A stretch of 38,121 nt of DNA from a virus (taxonomy: Duplodnaviria > Heunggongvirae > Uroviricota > Caudoviricetes): IMG/VR virus record IMGVR_UViG_2563366897_000009. One strand, written 5' to 3'. This document shows positions 1,824-27,860 of the stretch, piece by piece. A model generated the notes under the pieces. That model ran no database searches and was not told the origin of the DNA. It saw nothing but the letters and a program-made list of their open reading frames with translations. The translations under genes were made by a program, and so were the position numbers. Positions within the stretch are counted from its first letter, which is position 1. The number at the start of each line of letters is the position of its first letter.

Positions 1824-2287
1824 TCATAAATGACCAGCCATATCATCAGCGCCATTCTGACCCTTGTTTTTATTGAGATAGGCGTAATAGAGATCTATTT
1901 GTTTCGCAAGTTAACGGACATGAAGAACGCTTTATTGAACTCAGCATTGAATATATCGCCACTTATACCAAAGGACTTTTCCCGGCAGCTATTGGGGCGA
2001 TGTTTATAGCGTTTGTTATCTGGTTTATCGGGTGAGAAACCTGACAACCCACAACTACTGCAATGAGGGTAATTATGTGTGGCATGGACAAATTGGACCT
2101 TATGTTAATTGTAATACTATCAATTAACTTCGGTTACCTCTTAAGCGGCGCAATTCTCATGTGCGGAGGCAAACGAAAATGAACCAGCAGTCCGCAAAAC
2201 GTGAAAACAATGCGATGCGATTTAATCGCAAATATTTTGAGTTCGGCCTCTATGCCGGAATAATTAAATCTGTACAGAGTCTTTAAC

Positions 2288-2629
2288 ATGAAACAGCAAC
2301 GTAATTCACGCTTTCGCAATGGTGCAGAACGCCACGCTAACCGTTTTGCTACCAGTGCATCACGCAGCAACATCCGCTACAGCCTGAGTGATACACACGC
2401 AACGCCGGATGGCTACCCAGTAAAACAAATCGGCGAGCATGCCTGGCTGATTGAGAAAGCTGGAATCGTGATCCACAAATGCCCACGCAATCCGTTTACC
2501 GGAAACCGCATTTTTGCTCTAAGCAGTGGCAACAATCAGTTCGGGCAGGATTTCACATTATACGAAGCACTTCGCACGGTTGATCGTCTGCTTCGCGGGC
2601 AAAGTTTTATTAAACAGGCTGATTTATAA
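2288..2629 (+). CDS. hypothetical early protein
   Basis: 113-aa ORF in the early operon; its start overlaps a preceding mini-ORF (translational coupling). Confidence 0.5.
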   Translation: MKQQRNSRFRNGAERHANRFATSASRSNIRYSLSDTHATPDGYPVKQIGEHAWLIEKAGIVIHKCPRNPFTGNRIFALSSGNNQFGQDFTLYEALRTVDRLLRGQSFIKQADL

Positions 2630-2639
2630 CAGGTGCTTT

Positions 2640-2927
2640 ATGACCAAAGACCATGCACAAGGTGTATTTATCCGTTTTATTGATTTTCGCGGTGAACTGT
2701 TATTACGTGCATCCGCTATTGACGGAGTAACTCCGGCGGGTAAAAACGGAGCCGACGAAGCCACTTACGTTTATCTGAACGGCACGCGACTGCTTGTGGA
2801 ACTTCCGTACCAGACCGTACGAGAAATCATTAGCGAAGCTGAAAAGGCACGCCAGGTTAATGGCGATGAACCCTATATCGAAATTATTTGTATGGATTCA
2901 GAAGCTGAAATACAGAAAGCAGATTAA
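2640..2927 (+). CDS. hypothetical early protein
   Basis: 95-aa ORF starting MTKDHAQGVFIRF, placed directly after the previous stop. Confidence 0.5.
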   Translation: MTKDHAQGVFIRFIDFRGELLLRASAIDGVTPAGKNGADEATYVYLNGTRLLVELPYQTVREIISEAEKARQVNGDEPYIEIICMDSEAEIQKAD

Positions 2928-2938
2928 AGGGCGTTGTG

Positions 2939-3181
2939 ATGGGCAAAGAATATAAAACTCTCATTAACAAAGCACTTGAGCGTTTTTATTTTCGCTTAAG
3001 TGCATCAGGCGCTCATGCTGAACGTGCGGCCCGTGACTCATTGACCAGAGCAATCCGAAGTCTGTATGACGTGGCTTTTTACGCTGATGATCTGGATGCA
3101 CTTAACGAACTTTCCGAGCTGATCTGTGCCGCAGAGTGCGGGGAACATATTGAACCGTATAAGCTGGGGAATATCGCATGA
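2939..3181 (+). CDS. hypothetical early protein
   Basis: 80-aa ORF, tightly packed with neighbours. Confidence 0.5.
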   Translation: MGKEYKTLINKALERFYFRLSASGAHAERAARDSLTRAIRSLYDVAFYADDLDALNELSELICAAECGEHIEPYKLGNIA

Positions 3182-3291
3182 GTATATTTATCTCATGGCT
3201 TGTTCTGATTATTTCGGTGGCCTGCGCTATTGGGATTATGCGAATTATTCATTCAATAAAAAAGATTGAACGCTTTTTCACTGGCGAATAA
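3178..3291 (+). CDS. possible small membrane protein (37 aa)
   Basis: ATGA overlap with the upstream stop; hydrophobic core LVLIISVACAIGIM; below the ORF-track length cutoff. Confidence 0.3.
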   Translation: MSIFISWLVLIISVACAIGIMRIIHSIKKIERFFTGE

Positions 3292-3376
3292 CAGAGCAAA
3301 TAAAACCACAGATTAAATAAGAAAATGTAAAACAATCCGCATTCGCGGAGGTATTCGCACACGCCAAGGAGGCGTA

Positions 3377-3580
3377 ATGGCAATTAAGCATTTTCCTGTC
3401 GTTCGTTTTACCTCCAGAGGGCGTGAATACGAAGTCGACGAACGCCTGATTACCACAATCGACAAACACCGTTCAGAAAAGGATGCACATCACATCTATC
3501 TCACTGACGGCACTTACTTCTGCGCCACGAATGTGGTGCGGGTGAACCTTATCCGACAGGTACAGGAGTCACGCAGATGA
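3377..3580 (+). CDS. hypothetical early protein
   Basis: 67-aa ORF with an AGGAGG ribosome-binding site upstream. Confidence 0.5.
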   Translation: MAIKHFPVVRFTSRGREYEVDERLITTIDKHRSEKDAHHIYLTDGTYFCATNVVRVNLIRQVQESRR

Positions 3581-3822
3581 CCATTCTGGACTATATCGCC
3601 GCCAATCCGGGGTGTAGCGGTGGAGAAATCGCCGCAGCACTGAATACCCCAACCACAGCCATTAATGCGGAGTTACGCCGACTCTGGCGCAGCGGTTCAG
3701 TCATAAGAAAAGAGCGCAAAACAGGCGGTCGCTTTTCTTACCAGATAAACCCGATGCCGTTCGGGTGCGGCAATCCACTTACCAACATGTTTAACCAGCT
3801 ACTGAAGGAAGCCAGAGCATGA
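3577..3822 (+). CDS. small DNA-binding protein (winged-helix-like)
   Basis: 81 aa; MTILDYIAANPGCSGGEIAAAL...LRRLWRSGSV looks like a winged-helix fold; overlaps the upstream stop. Confidence 0.45.
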   Translation: MTILDYIAANPGCSGGEIAAALNTPTTAINAELRRLWRSGSVIRKERKTGGRFSYQINPMPFGCGNPLTNMFNQLLKEARA

Positions 3823-8014: not shown

Positions 8015-8974
8015 ATGAAAATTTGTATCGACGACGGCTCCACCAACATCAAGCTGGCATGGACTGAGAATGGCGAACGCCGCAACGCCATCAGCCCGAA
8101 CAGCTTCAAGTCGGAATGGTCTGCGCCGTTCGGTGGCATGCAGCCCGCGAACTACATGCTTGATGGCGTGCGCTATGGTTTTGATCCGGTCAGCGATCGC
8201 TTTGTCCAGACGACCGACACGCAATACCAGTACAGCGATGTGAATGTAATCGCCATTCATCACGCGCTGGTCAAATCAGGCATCACGCCACAAGAGGTGG
8301 ATGTGGTTGTCACCCTGCCACTGAGCGAGTATTTCGAGACAAACGCACAGCCGGACATGGCCAACATCAACCGCAAAAAAGCGAACGTTATGCGCTCGGT
8401 GGAGTACCAGAACGGCGAAGCATTCACTATCCGTAACGTGCGGGTTATGCCTGAATCCATTCCGGCTGGCTTTAAAGCACTGGCTGACATGAGTCCGTTT
8501 GAATCCCTGCTGATTGTGGATTTAGGCGGAACCACGCTGGATGTGGCAAAGGTTCAAGGGCAACTGGCAGGTATCAGCCAGGTGTTTTGCGATCCACACG
8601 TAGGCGTTTCCCTGATGGCCGATGCCGTACTGTCGGTGATGGCCACTAACGGTATGCGCACCAGTCACCACATCGCCAATACCATTATCGAACATCGCCA
8701 TGATGAAGCCTGGCTGCGCCAGCACATCCACAATGACGCGCATTACGCCAGCCTGATGGCGGTTATTCGTGAAAAGGAAGAAACACTGAAACAACGCGTG
8801 ATCCGCGCGCTGGCGGTTTTTTCGGGTTACGGGCGGGTGATGGTTGTCGGTGGAGGGGCGGAGATTGTGGCACCCGCTATCCGCGAAGTCTGCGGAGTTA
8901 ATGCGACTTTCATCGCGGACGGGGTGCCACAGTTTGCTCTGGTTAATGGGCTGTACGCAATGGACAAGGAGTAA
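8015..8974 (+). CDS. parM: ParM/StbA-like actin-type partition ATPase
   Basis: N-terminus MKICIDDGSTNIKLAW and the motifs VMPESIPAG, DLGGTTLD and VGGGAE resemble plasmid R1 ParM as recalled. Confidence 0.8.
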   Translation: MKICIDDGSTNIKLAWTENGERRNAISPNSFKSEWSAPFGGMQPANYMLDGVRYGFDPVSDRFVQTTDTQYQYSDVNVIAIHHALVKSGITPQEVDVVVTLPLSEYFETNAQPDMANINRKKANVMRSVEYQNGEAFTIRNVRVMPESIPAGFKALADMSPFESLLIVDLGGTTLDVAKVQGQLAGISQVFCDPHVGVSLMADAVLSVMATNGMRTSHHIANTIIEHRHDEAWLRQHIHNDAHYASLMAVIREKEETLKQRVIRALAVFSGYGRVMVVGGGAEIVAPAIREVCGVNATFIADGVPQFALVNGLYAMDKE

Positions 8975-8978
8975 ACCA

Positions 8979-9293
8979 ATGACGACACCAACCAGACGGA
9001 TAAGTTTCTATCTGAAGCCCGCCGCCGTCAAGAGTGAACAGGAGGCGTGCAATTACCTCGATAGCCTGCCAGCCTCCGAACGCAGCCGCGCGCAACGCGC
9101 GGCCTTTCTGGCTGGGCTAGCGCTCATAAAGCGCAACCCAGCATTTGCCTACTGGATGGCCGAATGGCCAGAGGACAACCTCCCCTTCAATACCGTTAGC
9201 ATCAAGGAAACATACCAGGATAATCAGCCTAGCGGAGTTGAATGCAATTTTTATAAAATTGCAAAGAATATTCAGACCTTATTCCCAGAATAA
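8979..9293 (+). CDS. parR: ParR-like adaptor (ribbon-helix-helix)
   Basis: RRISFYLKP...LDSLPASERSRAQRAAFLAGLAL resembles the R1 ParR N-terminus as recalled; directly downstream of parM. Confidence 0.6.
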   Translation: MTTPTRRISFYLKPAAVKSEQEACNYLDSLPASERSRAQRAAFLAGLALIKRNPAFAYWMAEWPEDNLPFNTVSIKETYQDNQPSGVECNFYKIAKNIQTLFPE

Positions 9294-9342
9294 TCTGATA
9301 ATTGTATGTGAACTAATAAAATACAGACCAACACATCATTCT

Positions 9343-9365
9343 GGCACCCTTGCTAACAGGGTGCC
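9343..9365. terminator. hairpin between convergent parR and the membrane-protein operon
   Basis: 7-bp perfect stem GGCACCC / GGGTGCC; no clear T-tract. Confidence 0.3.
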
Positions 9366-9376
9366 AATGTTTCAAA

Positions 9377-10219
9377 TCATGATGAAATTGCCGAAGTTTT
9401 TTTATCGTGCTGAAGTACCGCAAATGCCATTAAAACCTCAAGAGAATAGCGGCGATAATACTTAACAAAACCATAATAAAATACTCGGGATGCAGCAATA
9501 CAAAACAAGAGAAGAAAACAAAAAGGTAACAGTCTGATATTTATATCTATTAAAAAGGATAGAAGGAGCAGGAACATAAGCAACCAGACTGAAGCGAGAA
9601 AAACAAATGTAATGTTTCTACAAAAACCATACAAAGCAACATAGTTTTGCATTTTCACCTGATGATTTTTAGAATGTTCATACACATAATGATAAGCAAG
9701 GCGAAAAAGATCGCCCCTCAAGCCCTTACGTCGATATAGCGTAGATACAGAAAAAACATTTATATAACCATCTCGTATTTGCGGCCAAAAGACTTTAATA
9801 AGTATAGAATGCAGTGTGGTTTTATGATGTTCTGCTTTATCAAAAGCTGATACAGGAAATAAAAAAACTCCACGAATAAAATTAACTATACTGAACTTAG
9901 TATTATGTCGTTTTATTTTCAGGGAGCTTCTTTTAGAAAACAGATAAATTGAAGGATACCCAAGTTTACTGTTCATGTATTTTTCAATTAAACAGGATGA
10001 TAGAATAGATATGAAGTGACCTGAAATATATGATAGAACGATTAATACCACATATATAAATACACTTATTATTTCTTTATATTTCAGGATATGGTTAAGA
10101 ATACCTTCTATATAAACAGGGTTAATTTCAATAGAAAACAAAAAAAGGATAAACAGGAATAACCCACCTGGAATTAGATAGCCCAAAAAGTCATAAAATG
10201 AAAACGGATTCTGTGTCAC
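9377..10219 (-). CDS. multi-pass membrane protein of unknown function (hotspot cargo, second gene)
   Basis: 280 aa with about five hydrophobic segments; GTG start preceded by AGGGGGAAG; strongly AT-rich. Confidence 0.6.
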   Translation of the reverse strand: MTQNPFSFYDFLGYLIPGGLFLFILFLFSIEINPVYIEGILNHILKYKEIISVFIYVVLIVLSYISGHFISILSSCLIEKYMNSKLGYPSIYLFSKRSSLKIKRHNTKFSIVNFIRGVFLFPVSAFDKAEHHKTTLHSILIKVFWPQIRDGYINVFSVSTLYRRKGLRGDLFRLAYHYVYEHSKNHQVKMQNYVALYGFCRNITFVFLASVWLLMFLLLLSFLIDINIRLLPFCFLLLFCIAASRVFYYGFVKYYRRYSLEVLMAFAVLQHDKKTSAISS

Positions 10220-10258
10220 ACTTCCCCCTGTGTTACTTGTAAATTAAAGGGTAAAACA

Positions 10259-10756
10259 TTATTTGTTTTTCCGTAAAGGATTAGCTTTCCATCTTCTTAC
10301 TAACCATTCGAATTCTTGATATGTAGTATCCGAATTAATGCTTTCTCTGATTGCTTTAATTAATGGCTCGGCAATATCATATGTCTCTACAACTGTTGTG
10401 TAAGATGTTCTTTTTATCATTTTTTCATCATAAATACCTTCACGAATACTTACAGCAACTCGCTCGTAAAAATTTAAAATATATTGAAATTTTCGGCGCT
10501 CGGCCATTTCTTCATCTGTTATTATGCAACCATCACAAGGAAAAACATAAGAACGAAATGATTTGCCTGAACGATGCACTTGTTTCAGGGTATGCAATGA
10601 CTCTATATATTGCATATCTTGCCGACTCTCAAAAAGAAAGTTGGCCGTTTGAGTTTTTTTTGCGGTACGCACATTGTAGATAATGGTTCCAATGGCAACC
10701 AAAACGCCAAGCAGAACAATAGTATTGCTGATGATTTGTAGTGTTATTGGGTTCAT
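10259..10756 (-). CDS. single-pass membrane protein of unknown function (hotspot cargo, first gene)
   Basis: 165 aa; N-terminal transmembrane helix (residues about 5-27) followed by a charged soluble domain; AT-rich; 40 bp upstream of the 280-aa gene. Confidence 0.6.
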   Translation of the reverse strand: MNPITLQIISNTIVLLGVLVAIGTIIYNVRTAKKTQTANFLFESRQDMQYIESLHTLKQVHRSGKSFRSYVFPCDGCIITDEEMAERRKFQYILNFYERVAVSIREGIYDEKMIKRTSYTTVVETYDIAEPLIKAIRESINSDTTYQEFEWLVRRWKANPLRKNK

Positions 10757-10770
10757 CCTATTTCATCCAT

Positions 10771-10797
10771 AAAAAAGGCGGGGAGCAAATCCCCGCC
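10771..10797 (-). terminator. rho-independent terminator-like hairpin on the minus strand
   Basis: 8-bp perfect stem GGCGGGGA / TCCCCGCC followed by a T6 run on the minus strand, only about 15 bp before the start of the 165-aa gene. Confidence 0.45.
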
Positions 10798-10953
10798 TCA
10801 TTAGAGGTCAACGTAGCTTAGAAACCATCAAATTCATCATACATTTTATTCATATCAACCCCCTCATAGAAATCATAACCACGTTTTGTGGTTTTTGTGA
10901 CGTATAAACTACATCAAAGGCAAGCCACGGTCAAATATATAGGCATGCTTACC

Positions 10954-10980
10954 TGCACAAAAGTGCACAAATTTGCACAA
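10954..10980. repeat. three direct TGCACAA repeats at 10-bp phasing in the cos-proximal region
   Basis: Copies at 10954, 10964 and 10974, with a fourth at 11046; GGATCCGT also occurs twice at 11024..11042. Confidence 0.4.
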
Positions 10981-11076
10981 TTTTTTTGAACGACTTTTTA
11001 CCCTTCCGGCCCGCATGGCGGCTGGATCCGTCAAGGATCCGTGCGTGCACAAAAAAACGCGCTTTTTCTGCGCGCA

Positions 11077-11095
11077 GGTGACGGGGGAACAGCCC
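11077..11095. other. candidate cos cohesive-end region
   Basis: GGTGACGGGGGAACAGC loosely resembles the P2/186 cohesive-end sequence as I remember it; position next to Q fits P2-like cos. Confidence 0.2.
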
Positions 11096-11404
11096 GCGTT
11101 TCAGGGGGTAAATAGTATTCCCTGAGCGATGTCGCAGCGACATAACAGAATGGCCATATTTCTCACGCTGAGCGTGAAAAAGATGTGAGGGCTTTTGATT
11201 TGATGGGGTGAAAGGTAAGGCCGTCAAAATCGCACTGAGGCGGTGAGAACATGCAGTCAGCGCGGTGGGATTGCGTAAGAGTCTGACCGTCGATGATGGT
11301 AATAAACAGGAAAGCGTCGTGAAATTATCTGATTGATACAGGAGCTGGAGAGTCGGGGCATAAATTTTTTATGCCCCGCCGAAGCAGCAGACAAGCGAAG
11401 CGCG

Positions 11405-12451
11405 TCAGGATGTGGGCTGGGTGTCTAACAGTGCGTAAGGGTTAAAGCGAATCACCTCTTCGCCAAGCCAGTCATTGATGTGCTTCATGGCCTCCATGAC
11501 GGGCATCAGCTCGTTAATTGCGTAAACCCGCGCGGCCTTCTCCACATCACCAAACGCACTTTTTTCGCCTGGCATCGCCCCCATCAGTTGCGGCGGAACG
11601 CGGTGCGCAGCCAGCACATCATCACGGGATGCCACCTTAACATTCATGAACTCATCCTTTGCGGTGATCTGCTGGAACGGCAAAATTTGCACCCCCTCTT
11701 TGCCACCGTTGGGCGCATGAATGAGCACGTTTTTAAACGCACCACCACCACGCGCACCCTGTAGCGTTTCTTTCAGGGAGTCCATGCTTTCGCGGTTTAC
11801 CTGCGCTGCACCGATGTAGATGATGCACCCGGCGTGGGATCCGTTGTCGTAATACAGTTTTCTGAACATGTCCGCCGAATGAGACAGGCTGGCCGAGAGT
11901 AATGCGCCGAGATATTCCGGCATGCCGTAGATTTCCTGGTTAATGTCAGGATTCATCAGGTGGCACACTTTGCCAGGGCGAAACTGAAACGCGTCCTTGC
12001 CATCCTGCACATACCACCATGATTCAAGATCGCTTCCGCGTCGCATGTATTTCGCCAGGGCGTGCCGTAATTTAAGCGGTTCGCCGAGCATATTGCTTCG
12101 AAGCTCAAGGAATGCGTTACCGAACACAAACCAGTCCAGCGCCAGCGCCGAGAAATCCTGCCGGGAAAGCAACGGGTGCGGGATGTAGCAACCGAGTAAT
12201 ACATTGCGCTTAAAGTAAAGCGCAGACTGATGCCAGGACGTTTGCCGGGCAGCTCTTGCCAGACCGTACCAGTCCACCGGGGTTTCATACCACCGCCCGT
12301 TATCAGCACAGTACATATTGTCCAGCAGGTCATGCCCGGTCAGGCGATAAGGACCATCAAATGTGAATGCACTGAGCGATGATTCTTTCCTGAGCGCATC
12401 AGCGAGATCAATGCGTGAACTCATGCGCACTTTTTTATTTTTTCTGCTCAT
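11405..12451 (-). CDS. Q: portal protein
   Basis: 348 aa; ATGA overlap with the stop of P; position and size match P2 gpQ. Confidence 0.8.
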   Translation of the reverse strand: MSRKNKKVRMSSRIDLADALRKESSLSAFTFDGPYRLTGHDLLDNMYCADNGRWYETPVDWYGLARAARQTSWHQSALYFKRNVLLGCYIPHPLLSRQDFSALALDWFVFGNAFLELRSNMLGEPLKLRHALAKYMRRGSDLESWWYVQDGKDAFQFRPGKVCHLMNPDINQEIYGMPEYLGALLSASLSHSADMFRKLYYDNGSHAGCIIYIGAAQVNRESMDSLKETLQGARGGGAFKNVLIHAPNGGKEGVQILPFQQITAKDEFMNVKVASRDDVLAAHRVPPQLMGAMPGEKSAFGDVEKAARVYAINELMPVMEAMKHINDWLGEEVIRFNPYALLDTQPTS

Positions 12452-27206: not shown

Positions 27207-27260
27207 TGGCCGTTTCCGGCCTGCATGGCATGATTTGCGCTTTTGGACGGGAGATTCAGT

Positions 27261-27860
27261 GTGCTGATTGGTTATGTAAGGGTATCAACAAATGACCAGA
27301 ATACAGGCCTGCAACGAAACGCTCTTGTTTGTGCAGGATGTGAACAAATATTTGAAGATAAATTAAGCGGGACAAAGACAGACCGACCGGGATTAAAACG
27401 CGCTTTAAAGCGGCTTCAAAAAGGTGACACGCTGGTTGTCTGGAAACTGGATCGCCTTGGGCGAAGCATGAAACATCTGATTTCTCTCGTCGGAGAACTA
27501 CGGGAGCGAGGGATTAATTTTCGCAGTCTGACCGACAGCATAGATACATCTTCTCCAATGGGGCGTTTTTTCTTCCACGTGATGGGTGCCCTGGCTGAAA
27601 TGGAACGTGAATTAATTGTTGAACGTACACTGGCCGGACTGGCGGCAGCGCGCGCACGGGGGCGCACAGGCGGACGTCGCCCGAAGCTGACAAAAGAACA
27701 GCATGAGCAAATAGCAAGGCTGATCAAAAACGGTCATGACAGGAAACAACTGGCGATCATTTACGGCATCGGCATATCGACGATTTATCGTTATCACCCT
27801 GTAGGCGATATACAGGCTGAAGAAACAACCTGGCAGACTCAGGAAAATGAAAACCGCTAA
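27261..27860 (+). CDS. serine DNA invertase (Pin/Gin/Hin/Cin family)
   Basis: VLIGYVRVSTNDQNTGLQRNAL...VWKLDRLGRS is close to e14 Pin as recalled; GTG start with a GGGAG ribosome-binding site. Confidence 0.85.
   Translation: MLIGYVRVSTNDQNTGLQRNALVCAGCEQIFEDKLSGTKTDRPGLKRALKRLQKGDTLVVWKLDRLGRSMKHLISLVGELRERGINFRSLTDSIDTSSPMGRFFFHVMGALAEMERELIVERTLAGLAAARARGRTGGRRPKLTKEQHEQIARLIKNGHDRKQLAIIYGIGISTIYRYHPVGDIQAEETTWQTQENENR

Follow-up and report, generated by a model that had tools for sequence, protein, structure and literature searches.

A conserved micro-ORF and terminator leader ahead of a membrane-anchored DUF4760 protein in the A-Q hotspot of P88-like prophages: a candidate peptide-restrained effector

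What do two adjacent AT-rich genes for membrane proteins do in the hotspot of a P2-family prophage, do they form one system, and what sets their expression? The window analyzed here, the whole stretch of 38,121 nucleotides (nt) of virus record IMGVR_UViG_2563366897_000009, is an Escherichia coli prophage of the P88 type (Peduoviridae, Xuanwuvirus) whose integration site adjoins pdxB; NZ_CP196263 is 100% identical to it across the locus. A sequence-only reading had described a minus-strand operon for two membrane proteins in this DNA, much richer in AT than its surroundings, and had proposed it as an uncharacterised defence or exclusion system. The operon is real, with open reading frames (ORFs) at 10259..10756 (165 amino acids, aa) and 9377..10219 (280 aa, GTG start), and so is its composition: the cargo has 34% GC against 52% for the window (0.349 in the 165-aa gene, 0.317 in the 280-aa gene, 0.34 in the cargo block 9300..10953 and 0.516 in the whole window). 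The block is an accessory ("moron") transcription unit in the A-Q (old/tin) hotspot of a P88-like prophage of the P2 family. The answer developed below, offered tentatively and as short of probable, is that the 165-aa protein is a peptide-restrained membrane-anchored effector with terminator-set stoichiometry. The genes and their spacer are as follows; TM stands for transmembrane.

10259..10756, minus strand: DUF4760 protein, 165 aa; Pfam PF15956 at E 1e-34; phrog_2284; N-terminal anchor and all-helical domain.
10220..10258, minus strand: intergenic spacer of 39 nt, with the Shine-Dalgarno sequence GGGGGAAG ahead of the M280 start; no terminator or promoter was found in it.
9377..10219, minus strand: M280, a 280-aa four-TM basic protein, Csx27-like; GTG start; phrog_12528; no Pfam family.

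The upstream regions of 11 DUF4760 genes from different genera were aligned (alignment A3), and they share one order of elements, running from TTGAC…TA..TT through a hairpin, a Shine-Dalgarno sequence, an 11-codon ORF and a terminator to the DUF4760 start. The corresponding elements of the window are listed below in the direction of transcription.

10929..10934, minus strand: -35-like hexamer TTGACC of a predicted promoter, called at the level of the consensus; TTGAC is invariant in A3 and lies 17 nt ahead of TAGTTT.
10906..10911, minus strand: predicted -10-like hexamer TAGTTT; the TA..TT positions are invariant in A3.
10877..10893, minus strand: 5' stem-loop AACCAC-AAAAC-GTGGTT of the predicted leader; at other loci the sequence differs and a hairpin is still formed.
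10859..10865, minus strand: Shine-Dalgarno sequence GAGGGGG of the micro-ORF; GG.GGT is invariant in A3, 5-8 nt ahead of the ATG.
10818..10853, minus strand: micro-ORF MNKMYDEFDGF, 11 codons plus TAA, just upstream of the terminator hairpin.
10803..10808, minus strand: ACCTCT box, without variation in the P2-type subgroup; its complement is the Shine-Dalgarno sequence of the micro-ORF, with which it pairs in the minimum-free-energy fold.
10771..10799, minus strand: intrinsic terminator GAGGCGGGG-ATTTGCT-CCCCGCCTT plus T-run, with a 9-bp GC-rich stem, a 7-nt loop and T6; dG about -19 kcal/mol.

An equivalent micro-ORF, defined loosely as a Shine-Dalgarno-led frame of 6-35 aa ending in [DE]x[FYWVI][DEG][GW][FVLIY], precedes 47 of 50 non-redundant DUF4760 genes, including some whose proteins are just about 31% identical, and is absent ahead of 351 other genes in the same loci (0/351) and of 35 solitary M280 genes (0/35). 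A small upstream gene and a downstream candidate effector are in this way conserved as a pair within one transcription unit (47/50 against 0/351). Across 30 non-redundant leaders the last three codons always encode Asp-Gly-Phe, barring one Trp for Gly, and these codons vary synonymously (GAT/GAC, GGT/GGC/GGA/GGG, TTC/TTT); the stop is TAA in 28 of the 30. By this pattern of conservation the micro-ORF is real and selected at the peptide level, and it is a third conserved coding element, overlooked by gene callers. The tail of the peptide follows the clade of the DUF4760 protein, reading DEFDGF, DEFEWV in the clade at 43-50% identity, D/EVIDGL at 33-40% and EGWDGF at 31-35%; the most divergent clade lacks a terminator, and there the stop codon of the micro-ORF runs into the start of DUF4760 (TAATG). 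The ACCTCT box is absent from the other DUF4760 subgroups, and its significance is uncertain. Rfam searches with the leader returned two sub-threshold matches at chance level (E 0.15 and 0.17).

The hairpin ahead of the operon had already been noted as an irregularity of its control. It is a textbook terminator (10799..10771) ending 14 nt ahead of the DUF4760 ATG at 10756; its supposed oddity did not hold, for across loci it is an element of a family-wide micro-ORF/terminator leader, not peculiar to this locus, and the micro-ORF at 10853..10818 had been missed. The expectation of non-canonical regulation was borne out by this leader and by the lack of room for a promoter after the T-run. A hairpin with a T-run lies between micro-ORF and DUF4760 in 40 of the 47 micro-ORF loci. 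Its stem sequences are unrelated between clades, with a compensatory change in one locus (L015), so that structure is kept and not sequence. Across DUF4760 loci the start codon follows the T-run by just 14-40 nt, and transcription of DUF4760 would therefore depend on read-through. A promoter inside or after the hairpin was rejected, there being no room for one and no hexamers conserved across clades. Also rejected was a P2-type cos site: hairpin and P2 cos have GAGGCGGGGA in common, but no match to the 19-nt P2 cos appears even when 3 mismatches are allowed, and where DUF4760 occurs outside P2-like settings the hairpin goes with it. In L133 (NZ_OX637964, ST131; 2270..3650), and also in L232 and L247, the leader is naturally uncoupled from the genes by IS421 (IS4 family), inserted in the hairpin. 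The site is equivalent to window positions ~10783..10793, with a duplication of ~11 bp (GGATTTGCTCC), and the element parts the micro-ORF and promoter from DUF4760 and M280 by ~1.35 kb.

A short leader ORF, predicted to be translated, followed by an intrinsic terminator before the gene is the layout of an attenuator, and the leader could accordingly act in cis. The nascent peptide ending in …DEFDGF-stop would stall or destabilize the ribosome, perhaps aided by a small molecule or by a certain state of the ribosome, and would set terminator read-through into DUF4760 and M280; the released peptide would be functionless, and the membrane proteins would still be defence or exclusion cargo. Micro-ORF, spacer, terminator and gene indeed stand in series without promoter space, the last six residues and the stop are the most conserved part, behind a variable N-terminus (8-35 aa), a mini-ORF plus hairpin also precedes unrelated genes (gene 47 at +64 nt, a 174-aa gene at +41 nt, a primase), and the P2-subgroup Shine-Dalgarno sequence pairs with the conserved ACCTCT box beside the terminator. 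TnaC, SpeFL, the erm/cat leaders and MgtL are alike in having a Shine-Dalgarno-led short ORF, a conserved C-terminal motif plus stop and a terminator gating the downstream gene. They differ in that no antiterminator was found here and that the motif both changes in step with the protein encoded downstream and occurs free-standing. Co-variation of the tail with the DUF4760 clade is hard to square with a constant ribosome tunnel, and repeats of the motif within single peptides are unexpected for an arrest motif. No conserved antiterminator was found across clades, the minimum-free-energy fold holding only the Shine-Dalgarno:ACCTCT helix and the terminator, and the hairpin begins 18-30 nt past the stop, outside the footprint of a terminating ribosome. 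Many free-standing copies, moreover, have no near co-directional gene downstream, and one clade overlaps the DUF4760 start with the terminator absent. Weighing both sides, we regard such a cis-acting leader as the main rival to a released peptide, yet as rather unlikely.

A released peptide that binds DUF4760 is favoured because the tail co-varies with the clade, the motif repeats and the linkage is asymmetric: DUF4760 nearly always comes with the peptide, and the peptide often without DUF4760. Among the 124 matches to DEFDGF-stop listed, 36 precede DUF4760 and at least 88 have no DUF4760 downstream; in the scans the looser pattern covers 80 of 116 matching stretches, and the free-standing counts are lower bounds. 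The motif repeats inside single peptides, as in DEFEGF-DEFDGF, and other DEFDGF copies precede genes of no assigned family, the 174-aa gene at +41 nt among them; many free-standing copies lie without a close co-directional gene downstream. A possible resemblance of the peptide, which is acidic and has a terminal Phe, to the C-terminal tips of SSB and T7 gp2.5 or to the YxF tails of outer-membrane proteins is retained as a lead only. A literature match to FDEFDG in a paper on T. cruzi ribosomal P0 was deemed coincidental.

Several of these copies sit in lytic phages. An annotated 21-aa gene of Karamvirus PG7 (L175, NC_023561; 1604..1669) encodes MFSLRKFD(A/E)ED(V/F)(D/E)(V/F)FDEFDGF, as do L140, L144, L146 and L153; it has a-gt.2 on one side and gene 47, 64 nt downstream, on the other, and is followed by a hairpin. 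In our comparison the C-terminal heptapeptide is common to its product and the DUF4760 leader peptide, and the region around this mini-gene matches 38 phage records, mostly T4-like Enterobacter phages. A 163-kb T4-like contig (L189) carries tandem mini-ORFs, MILDEFDGF-stop and MPCVLDEFEGFDEHPDF-stop, then a hairpin and a gene 61-type primase; we take the T4 ORFs beside gene 61 to include dmd. In the lambdoid contigs L169, L225, L186, L238 and L248, mini-ORFs such as MLDEFEGFDEFDGF-stop or MLDEFDGF-stop, then TTCCCCCGAATTCGAGGG, lie between a Q-like gene and a holin gene. They could be expressed in lysogens if the interval from the putative Q-like gene to lysis is a late-operon leader.

As to the protein itself, the match to PF15956 scores 120.2 bits against a gathering cut-off of 25 and covers profile positions 2-141 of 141. 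The earlier description of one N-terminal TM helix and a charged soluble domain is confirmed: the single hydrophobic segment spans residues 8-26 and is followed by K/R-rich sequence. Because of this R/K-rich stretch after the helix, the positive-inside rule predicts that the remaining ~140 residues should be cytoplasmic. Residues R45, R68, R99, K115 and R137 are invariant. An AlphaFold2 model built from a 40-sequence alignment is all-helical (pLDDT 93, pTM 0.81). In Foldseek searches with this model, EDS1-family chains rank at the top by probability (0.63-0.99) and TM-score (0.52-0.56), and the remaining matches reach TM-scores of at most 0.31. The EP domain of the EDS1 family is the best and sole consistent structural match of the model, by two methods and over ~140-150 aligned residues. 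The EP domain of plant EDS1, PAD4 and SAG101 is a receptor for nucleotides made by TIR domains; in that family it follows a lipase-like domain in one chain, and the proteins form heterodimers that bind nucleotides. The likeness lies in an all-helical build and, given the role proposed here for DUF4760, an immune-conflict setting. DUF4760, at 165 aa, differs in having a TM anchor and no lipase-like domain, and its ligand, judged from the model, would likely be an encoded peptide and not a nucleotide. Loci L051-L053 carry 1-3 tandem genes of ~165 aa just 3' of DUF4760, each with an N-terminal TM helix and no Pfam match (e.g. MDNTLISAVISAAVAIFIACVTVYW…); they may be analogues or very distant paralogues of DUF4760, since their architecture equals that of DUF4760. 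The ratio of nonsynonymous to synonymous substitution rates (dN/dS) is 0.1-0.5 for DUF4760 and about 0.25 for M280, with 0.1-0.28 across diverged comparisons, and by this measure both membrane-protein genes are under purifying selection.

This architecture also raises superinfection exclusion. P22 SieA, T4 Imm, HK97 gp15 and lactococcal Sie2009 are phage blockers of DNA entry, and either or both membrane proteins could likewise be constitutive exclusion proteins of the inner membrane that block DNA entry, and not triggered suicide effectors. Both are small inner-membrane proteins encoded by single-gene morons (in the P2 hotspot, between the tail genes L, K and I, beside int/xis), and an anchor plus a ~140-aa domain in ~165 aa recalls Sie2009-type proteins. 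According to PMC7642515, Makarova et al. 2019 also suggested that proteins of the Csx27 family, which M280 resembles, make channels for nucleic acids. The positive-inside rule, by contrast, puts the DUF4760 domain in the cytoplasm and not toward the incoming phage; a harmless constitutive blocker needs neither tight attenuation nor a dedicated peptide; and Pfam, PADLOC, PHROG and NCBIfam searches gave no homology to known Sie proteins. We hold exclusion of this kind to be unlikely.

Whether the two genes form a pair was examined at viral loci that hold relatives of DUF4760 (59 loci) or of M280 (52 loci), together with genomic contexts, a partner being sought in each. The lack of a terminator or promoter in the 39-nt spacer indicates that DUF4760 and M280 are co-transcribed in this lineage. 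Their adjacency is confined to an E. coli lineage of at least 96% identity, comprising 8 of the 59 DUF4760 and 7 of the 52 M280 viral loci. Of the remaining loci, 51 with DUF4760 (31-89% identity) and 45 with M280 (36-47%), none has the partner within 5 kb. P2-like prophages of Kluyvera and Pectobacterium hold DUF4760 and no other cargo in the same Q-A hotspot. It stands alone in a Rahnella chromosome, and in lambdoid phages it is a moron that follows the tail chaperone or lies between the tail genes L, K and I; M280 relatives stand alone in lambdoid prophages, near int/xis or after a yfdR-like gene. In the L134 variant of the cassette, compared with window 9377..10756, DUF4760 is 99% and M280 87% identical, and the synonymous divergence (dS) is discordant, at 0.049 for DUF4760 and 0.276 for M280, which therefore places a recombination breakpoint between the two genes and gives them separate histories.

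The claim that the two genes are one system thus fails, each family being overwhelmingly solitary elsewhere (51/59 and 45/52 loci). An obligate two-component membrane defence system of DUF4760 and M280 would find support in their co-transcription 39 nt apart, in their treatment as one system by Rousset et al. (PMC9122126), and in the retention of an 87% M280 allele behind a 99%-identical DUF4760. The missing partners, the P2-like prophages with DUF4760 as sole hotspot cargo and the discordant dS inside the cassette (0.049 vs 0.276) all speak the other way, and we consider such a system improbable. The simplest reading of these distributions is that two independently mobile single-gene modules are stacked in one transcription unit, and some functional coupling of the two membrane proteins may exist in this lineage.

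M280 had been credited with about five hydrophobic segments; its multi-TM nature stands, and the count was slightly high, the strong segments being four (12-30, 50-68, 206-224 and 230-248), arranged as two TM pairs around a conserved basic region of ~135 residues. The family numbers 1082 cluster-50 representatives at E<=1e-3 and has no Pfam model. The structure model is mediocre (pLDDT 71), and nothing specific was matched in structure comparison. The PADLOC Csx27 model, which has no curated threshold, matches the M280 of the window weakly (E 1.1e-5) and matches 32/32 close and 32/46 distant relatives (best E 2.2e-10), a weak but consistent signal; some relatives also match PADLOC "tm_4", and both models represent type VI-B accessory membrane proteins. 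Searches of PADLOC-DB v2 matched M280 to Csx27 and tm_4 alone and to no validated defence system. These weak hits suggest that the M280 family is remotely related to Csx27.

Csx27 is a membrane accessory protein of type VI-B1 CRISPR-Cas (Smargon 2017; Makarova 2019). The likeness consists in four predicted TM helices, as in M280, and in the weak but consistent profile matches over the M280 family. M280 differs in being ~80 residues longer, with the conserved insert of ~135 residues between TM pairs, and in having no cas13b or CRISPR array and no competence, ubiquitin-like or WYL genes near it: in the RefSeq annotation of the identical locus, only prophage genes are present. The contexts of M280 homologues are those of prophage morons, and Csx27-family members are described outside CRISPR loci as well (PMC7642515). 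The commonest solitary M280 homologue, of 288 aa and found in more than 1000 contigs, lies in the E. coli chromosome near lexA-dinF-zur (L002-L006). Its setting there is the remnant of a lambdoid prophage, with yfdP/yfdQ/yfdR-like genes ahead of it, a PyocinActivator-family gene behind it and a gene with a SocA_Panacea domain nearby. The sequence-only reading had recognised no enzymatic or known-defence signature in either protein. The absence of an enzymatic or validated-defence signature held in PADLOC, Pfam and NCBIfam, the last of which returned nothing for the 165-aa or the 280-aa protein; "no known signature" was too strong, in view of Pfam DUF4760 and the weak Csx27 match.

As an object the pair is not new; the micro-ORF/terminator part is. 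Rousset et al. 2022 (Cell Host Microbe; PMC9122126) counted it 1102 times in 18,150 loci and entered it in their Table S5B as P2-hotspot system #3, "DUF4760"; to call it uncharacterised in the sense of undescribed was thus mistaken. Table S5 names its proteins WP_001539201 and WP_000193205, supplies both sequences and carries, in S5B, a Phobius remark of 1 TM for protein 1 and 4 TM for protein 2 (PMC9122126). It is the same object as ours, in the same A-Q hotspot beside StbA/Plasmid_stab_B, with protein 2 identical and protein 1 one residue off; the entry is a catalogue line, from which the micro-ORF, terminator, linkage and fold or family assignment are all absent. Among complete E. coli genomes the whole block is carried by 289 of 5426 (about 5%). 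A literature search for the RefSeq accessions and N-terminal peptide strings of both proteins found them in no paper, the term DUF4760 occurred in main text solely in an unrelated Serratia paper, and neither protein is present in the supplements of Vassallo 2022 or of a 2026 P2/P4 preprint.

These elements can be assembled into a working proposal of two modules. Module 1 would comprise the promoter, the 11-residue acidic micro-ORF (MNKMYDEFDGF), the intrinsic terminator and the inner-membrane-anchored DUF4760; module 2 would be the four-TM Csx27-like protein, solitary elsewhere. The majority of transcripts would end at the terminator, so that the peptide is made in large excess, and read-through would yield a little DUF4760 and, in this lineage, M280. 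The peptide would bind the cytoplasmic domain of DUF4760 and hold it inert in the manner of an antitoxin. An infecting phage would deplete this short-lived peptide by halting host expression, or would displace it, and the freed membrane protein or proteins would act at the inner membrane, aborting or excluding the infection. Free-standing peptide genes in lytic T4-like and other phages would be antidotes or mimics. Binding, toxicity, trigger and anti-phage effect are what we infer here, and the peptide-restrained effector as a whole stays a tentative reading. We put slightly better than even odds on a role of some kind for the cassette in conflict between phages or between phage and host.

The proposed device would work like RnlA/RnlB with T4 Dmd, or ToxIN with pseudo-ToxI, in that a small upstream inhibitor is over-expressed relative to its effector and orphan copies occur in lytic phages; one T4-like peptide copy even lies just upstream of gene 61, which we take to be the neighbourhood of dmd in T4. 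It would differ from these toxin-antitoxin systems in that the inhibitor has 8-13 residues, stoichiometry is set by an intrinsic terminator, and the effector is membrane-anchored and helical, not a nuclease.

Several points weigh against the proposal. We know of no precedent for an antitoxin as short as 8-11 residues. A leader peptide would equally account for the constant C-terminal motif with its stop, the changeable N-terminus, the hairpin that follows and the unrelated genes downstream. For the fold, the Foldseek E-values of the EDS1-family match are weak (0.24-1.7), Pfam EDS1_EP does not match DUF4760 at E<=1, the DUF4760 profile has 0 matches among PDB sequences at E<=10, and the DUF4760 alignment, compared by hhalign with the verified EP sequence of AtEDS1 (366-623), reaches a probability of 0.2%, no signal. 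In PADLOC-DB v2 the best match of DUF4760 is PDC-S35 (E 0.004-0.015), and no validated defence system is matched. The pair, furthermore, survives in its lineage despite a diverged M280 allele, and system #3 does not appear in the list of tested systems of Rousset et al. (Table S2; PMC9122126), being catalogued only. DUF4760 is EP-domain-like in its modelled fold, with homology unproven. We regard as quite unlikely the strongest form of the proposal, in which DUF4760 is a membrane-tethered EP-like receptor, related or convergent to EDS1/PAD4, its ligand is the acidic …DEFDGF-COOH micro-peptide with its aromatic or hydrophobic last residue, the two make the smallest peptide-gated immune switch known from temperate phages, and the free-standing mini-genes of T4-like, lambdoid and other enterobacterial phages are antidotes or mimics.

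In gene order, the replication endonuclease gene A is followed by ParM (8015..8974) and a ParR/StbB-like gene (to 9293), then come the minus-strand 280-aa and 165-aa ORFs, and the portal gene Q (11405..12451) begins beyond ~650 nt of non-coding DNA past the 165-aa ORF. The earlier placement in the A-Q hotspot stands with one amendment, that the ParM/ParR pair separates the block from A. Two further features are these.

9300..10953, no strand: variable cargo block, as judged against relatives of the P88 type; alignments with other Xuanwuvirus and P2-like records are confined to ~9000-9300 and 10954-11400.
9343..9365, minus strand: hairpin GGCACCCT-GTTAGCA-AGGGTGCC between the convergent M280 and ParR-like genes, read from the sequence, without a T-run.

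With no T-run after its stem, the hairpin at 9343..9365 is unproven as a terminator. The ParM/ParR pair (8015..9293, plus strand) between gene A and the cargo consists of a ParM with StbA_N and ParM C-terminal domains (E 1e-81) and a Plasmid_stab_B partner; its presence suggests that P88-like prophages may persist as plasmids. ParMR is the commonest P2-hotspot "system" of Rousset et al. 2022, with 4592 loci (PMC9122126). Cargo for lysogenic conversion, envelope physiology or element maintenance, for instance linked to ParMR or to stress tolerance, would accord with the constant adjacency of ParM/ParR to the block in E. coli, with the roughly one quarter of P2 hotspots that hold non-defence cargo (partition systems, cdt toxin), and with the Rahnella chromosomal copy among metabolic genes. 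DUF4760 without ParMR in other P2-likes and at tail-gene moron sites does not fit this explanation. Homology to O-antigen modification or lysis families, named beforehand as what would undo a defence role, and to transport families was sought in Pfam and NCBIfam and none was matched. Unless conflict is involved, the orphan copies of the peptide gene in lytic phages also make little sense. We judge non-antiviral cargo very improbable.

Outside the block, three copies of TTGTGCA (AAAATTGTGCAAATTTGTGCACTTTTGTGCAG) at ~10955..11060 on the minus strand are kept in all aligned P2-like relatives. The genome record of phage P88_4B11 begins at about window position 10999, and the virion end (cos) is therefore probably in the ~10955..11060 region, where the P2 cos 19-mer is absent. 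Farther along, a recombinase-family (invertase-like) gene at window ~27260..27860 (from L001 38262..38861) is flanked by oppositely oriented tail-fibre assembly genes, and together these are probably an invertible host-range segment.

The cargo examined here is the third most abundant in the best-studied phage defence hotspot, at ~5% of complete E. coli genomes. Its two-protein entry is recast as a three-part unit, with two separable modules and candidate antidotes in lytic Karamvirus phages. Should peptide control fail, the conserved micro-ORF/terminator leader would remain as a new regulatory device. If the proposal is true, a micro-peptide class would be added to phage-host conflict and a widespread unannotated mini-ORF of enterobacterial phages would be explained; DUF4760 would then also be the first prokaryotic protein with an EP-like fold, bearing on the origin of the plant TIR-EDS1 pathway.

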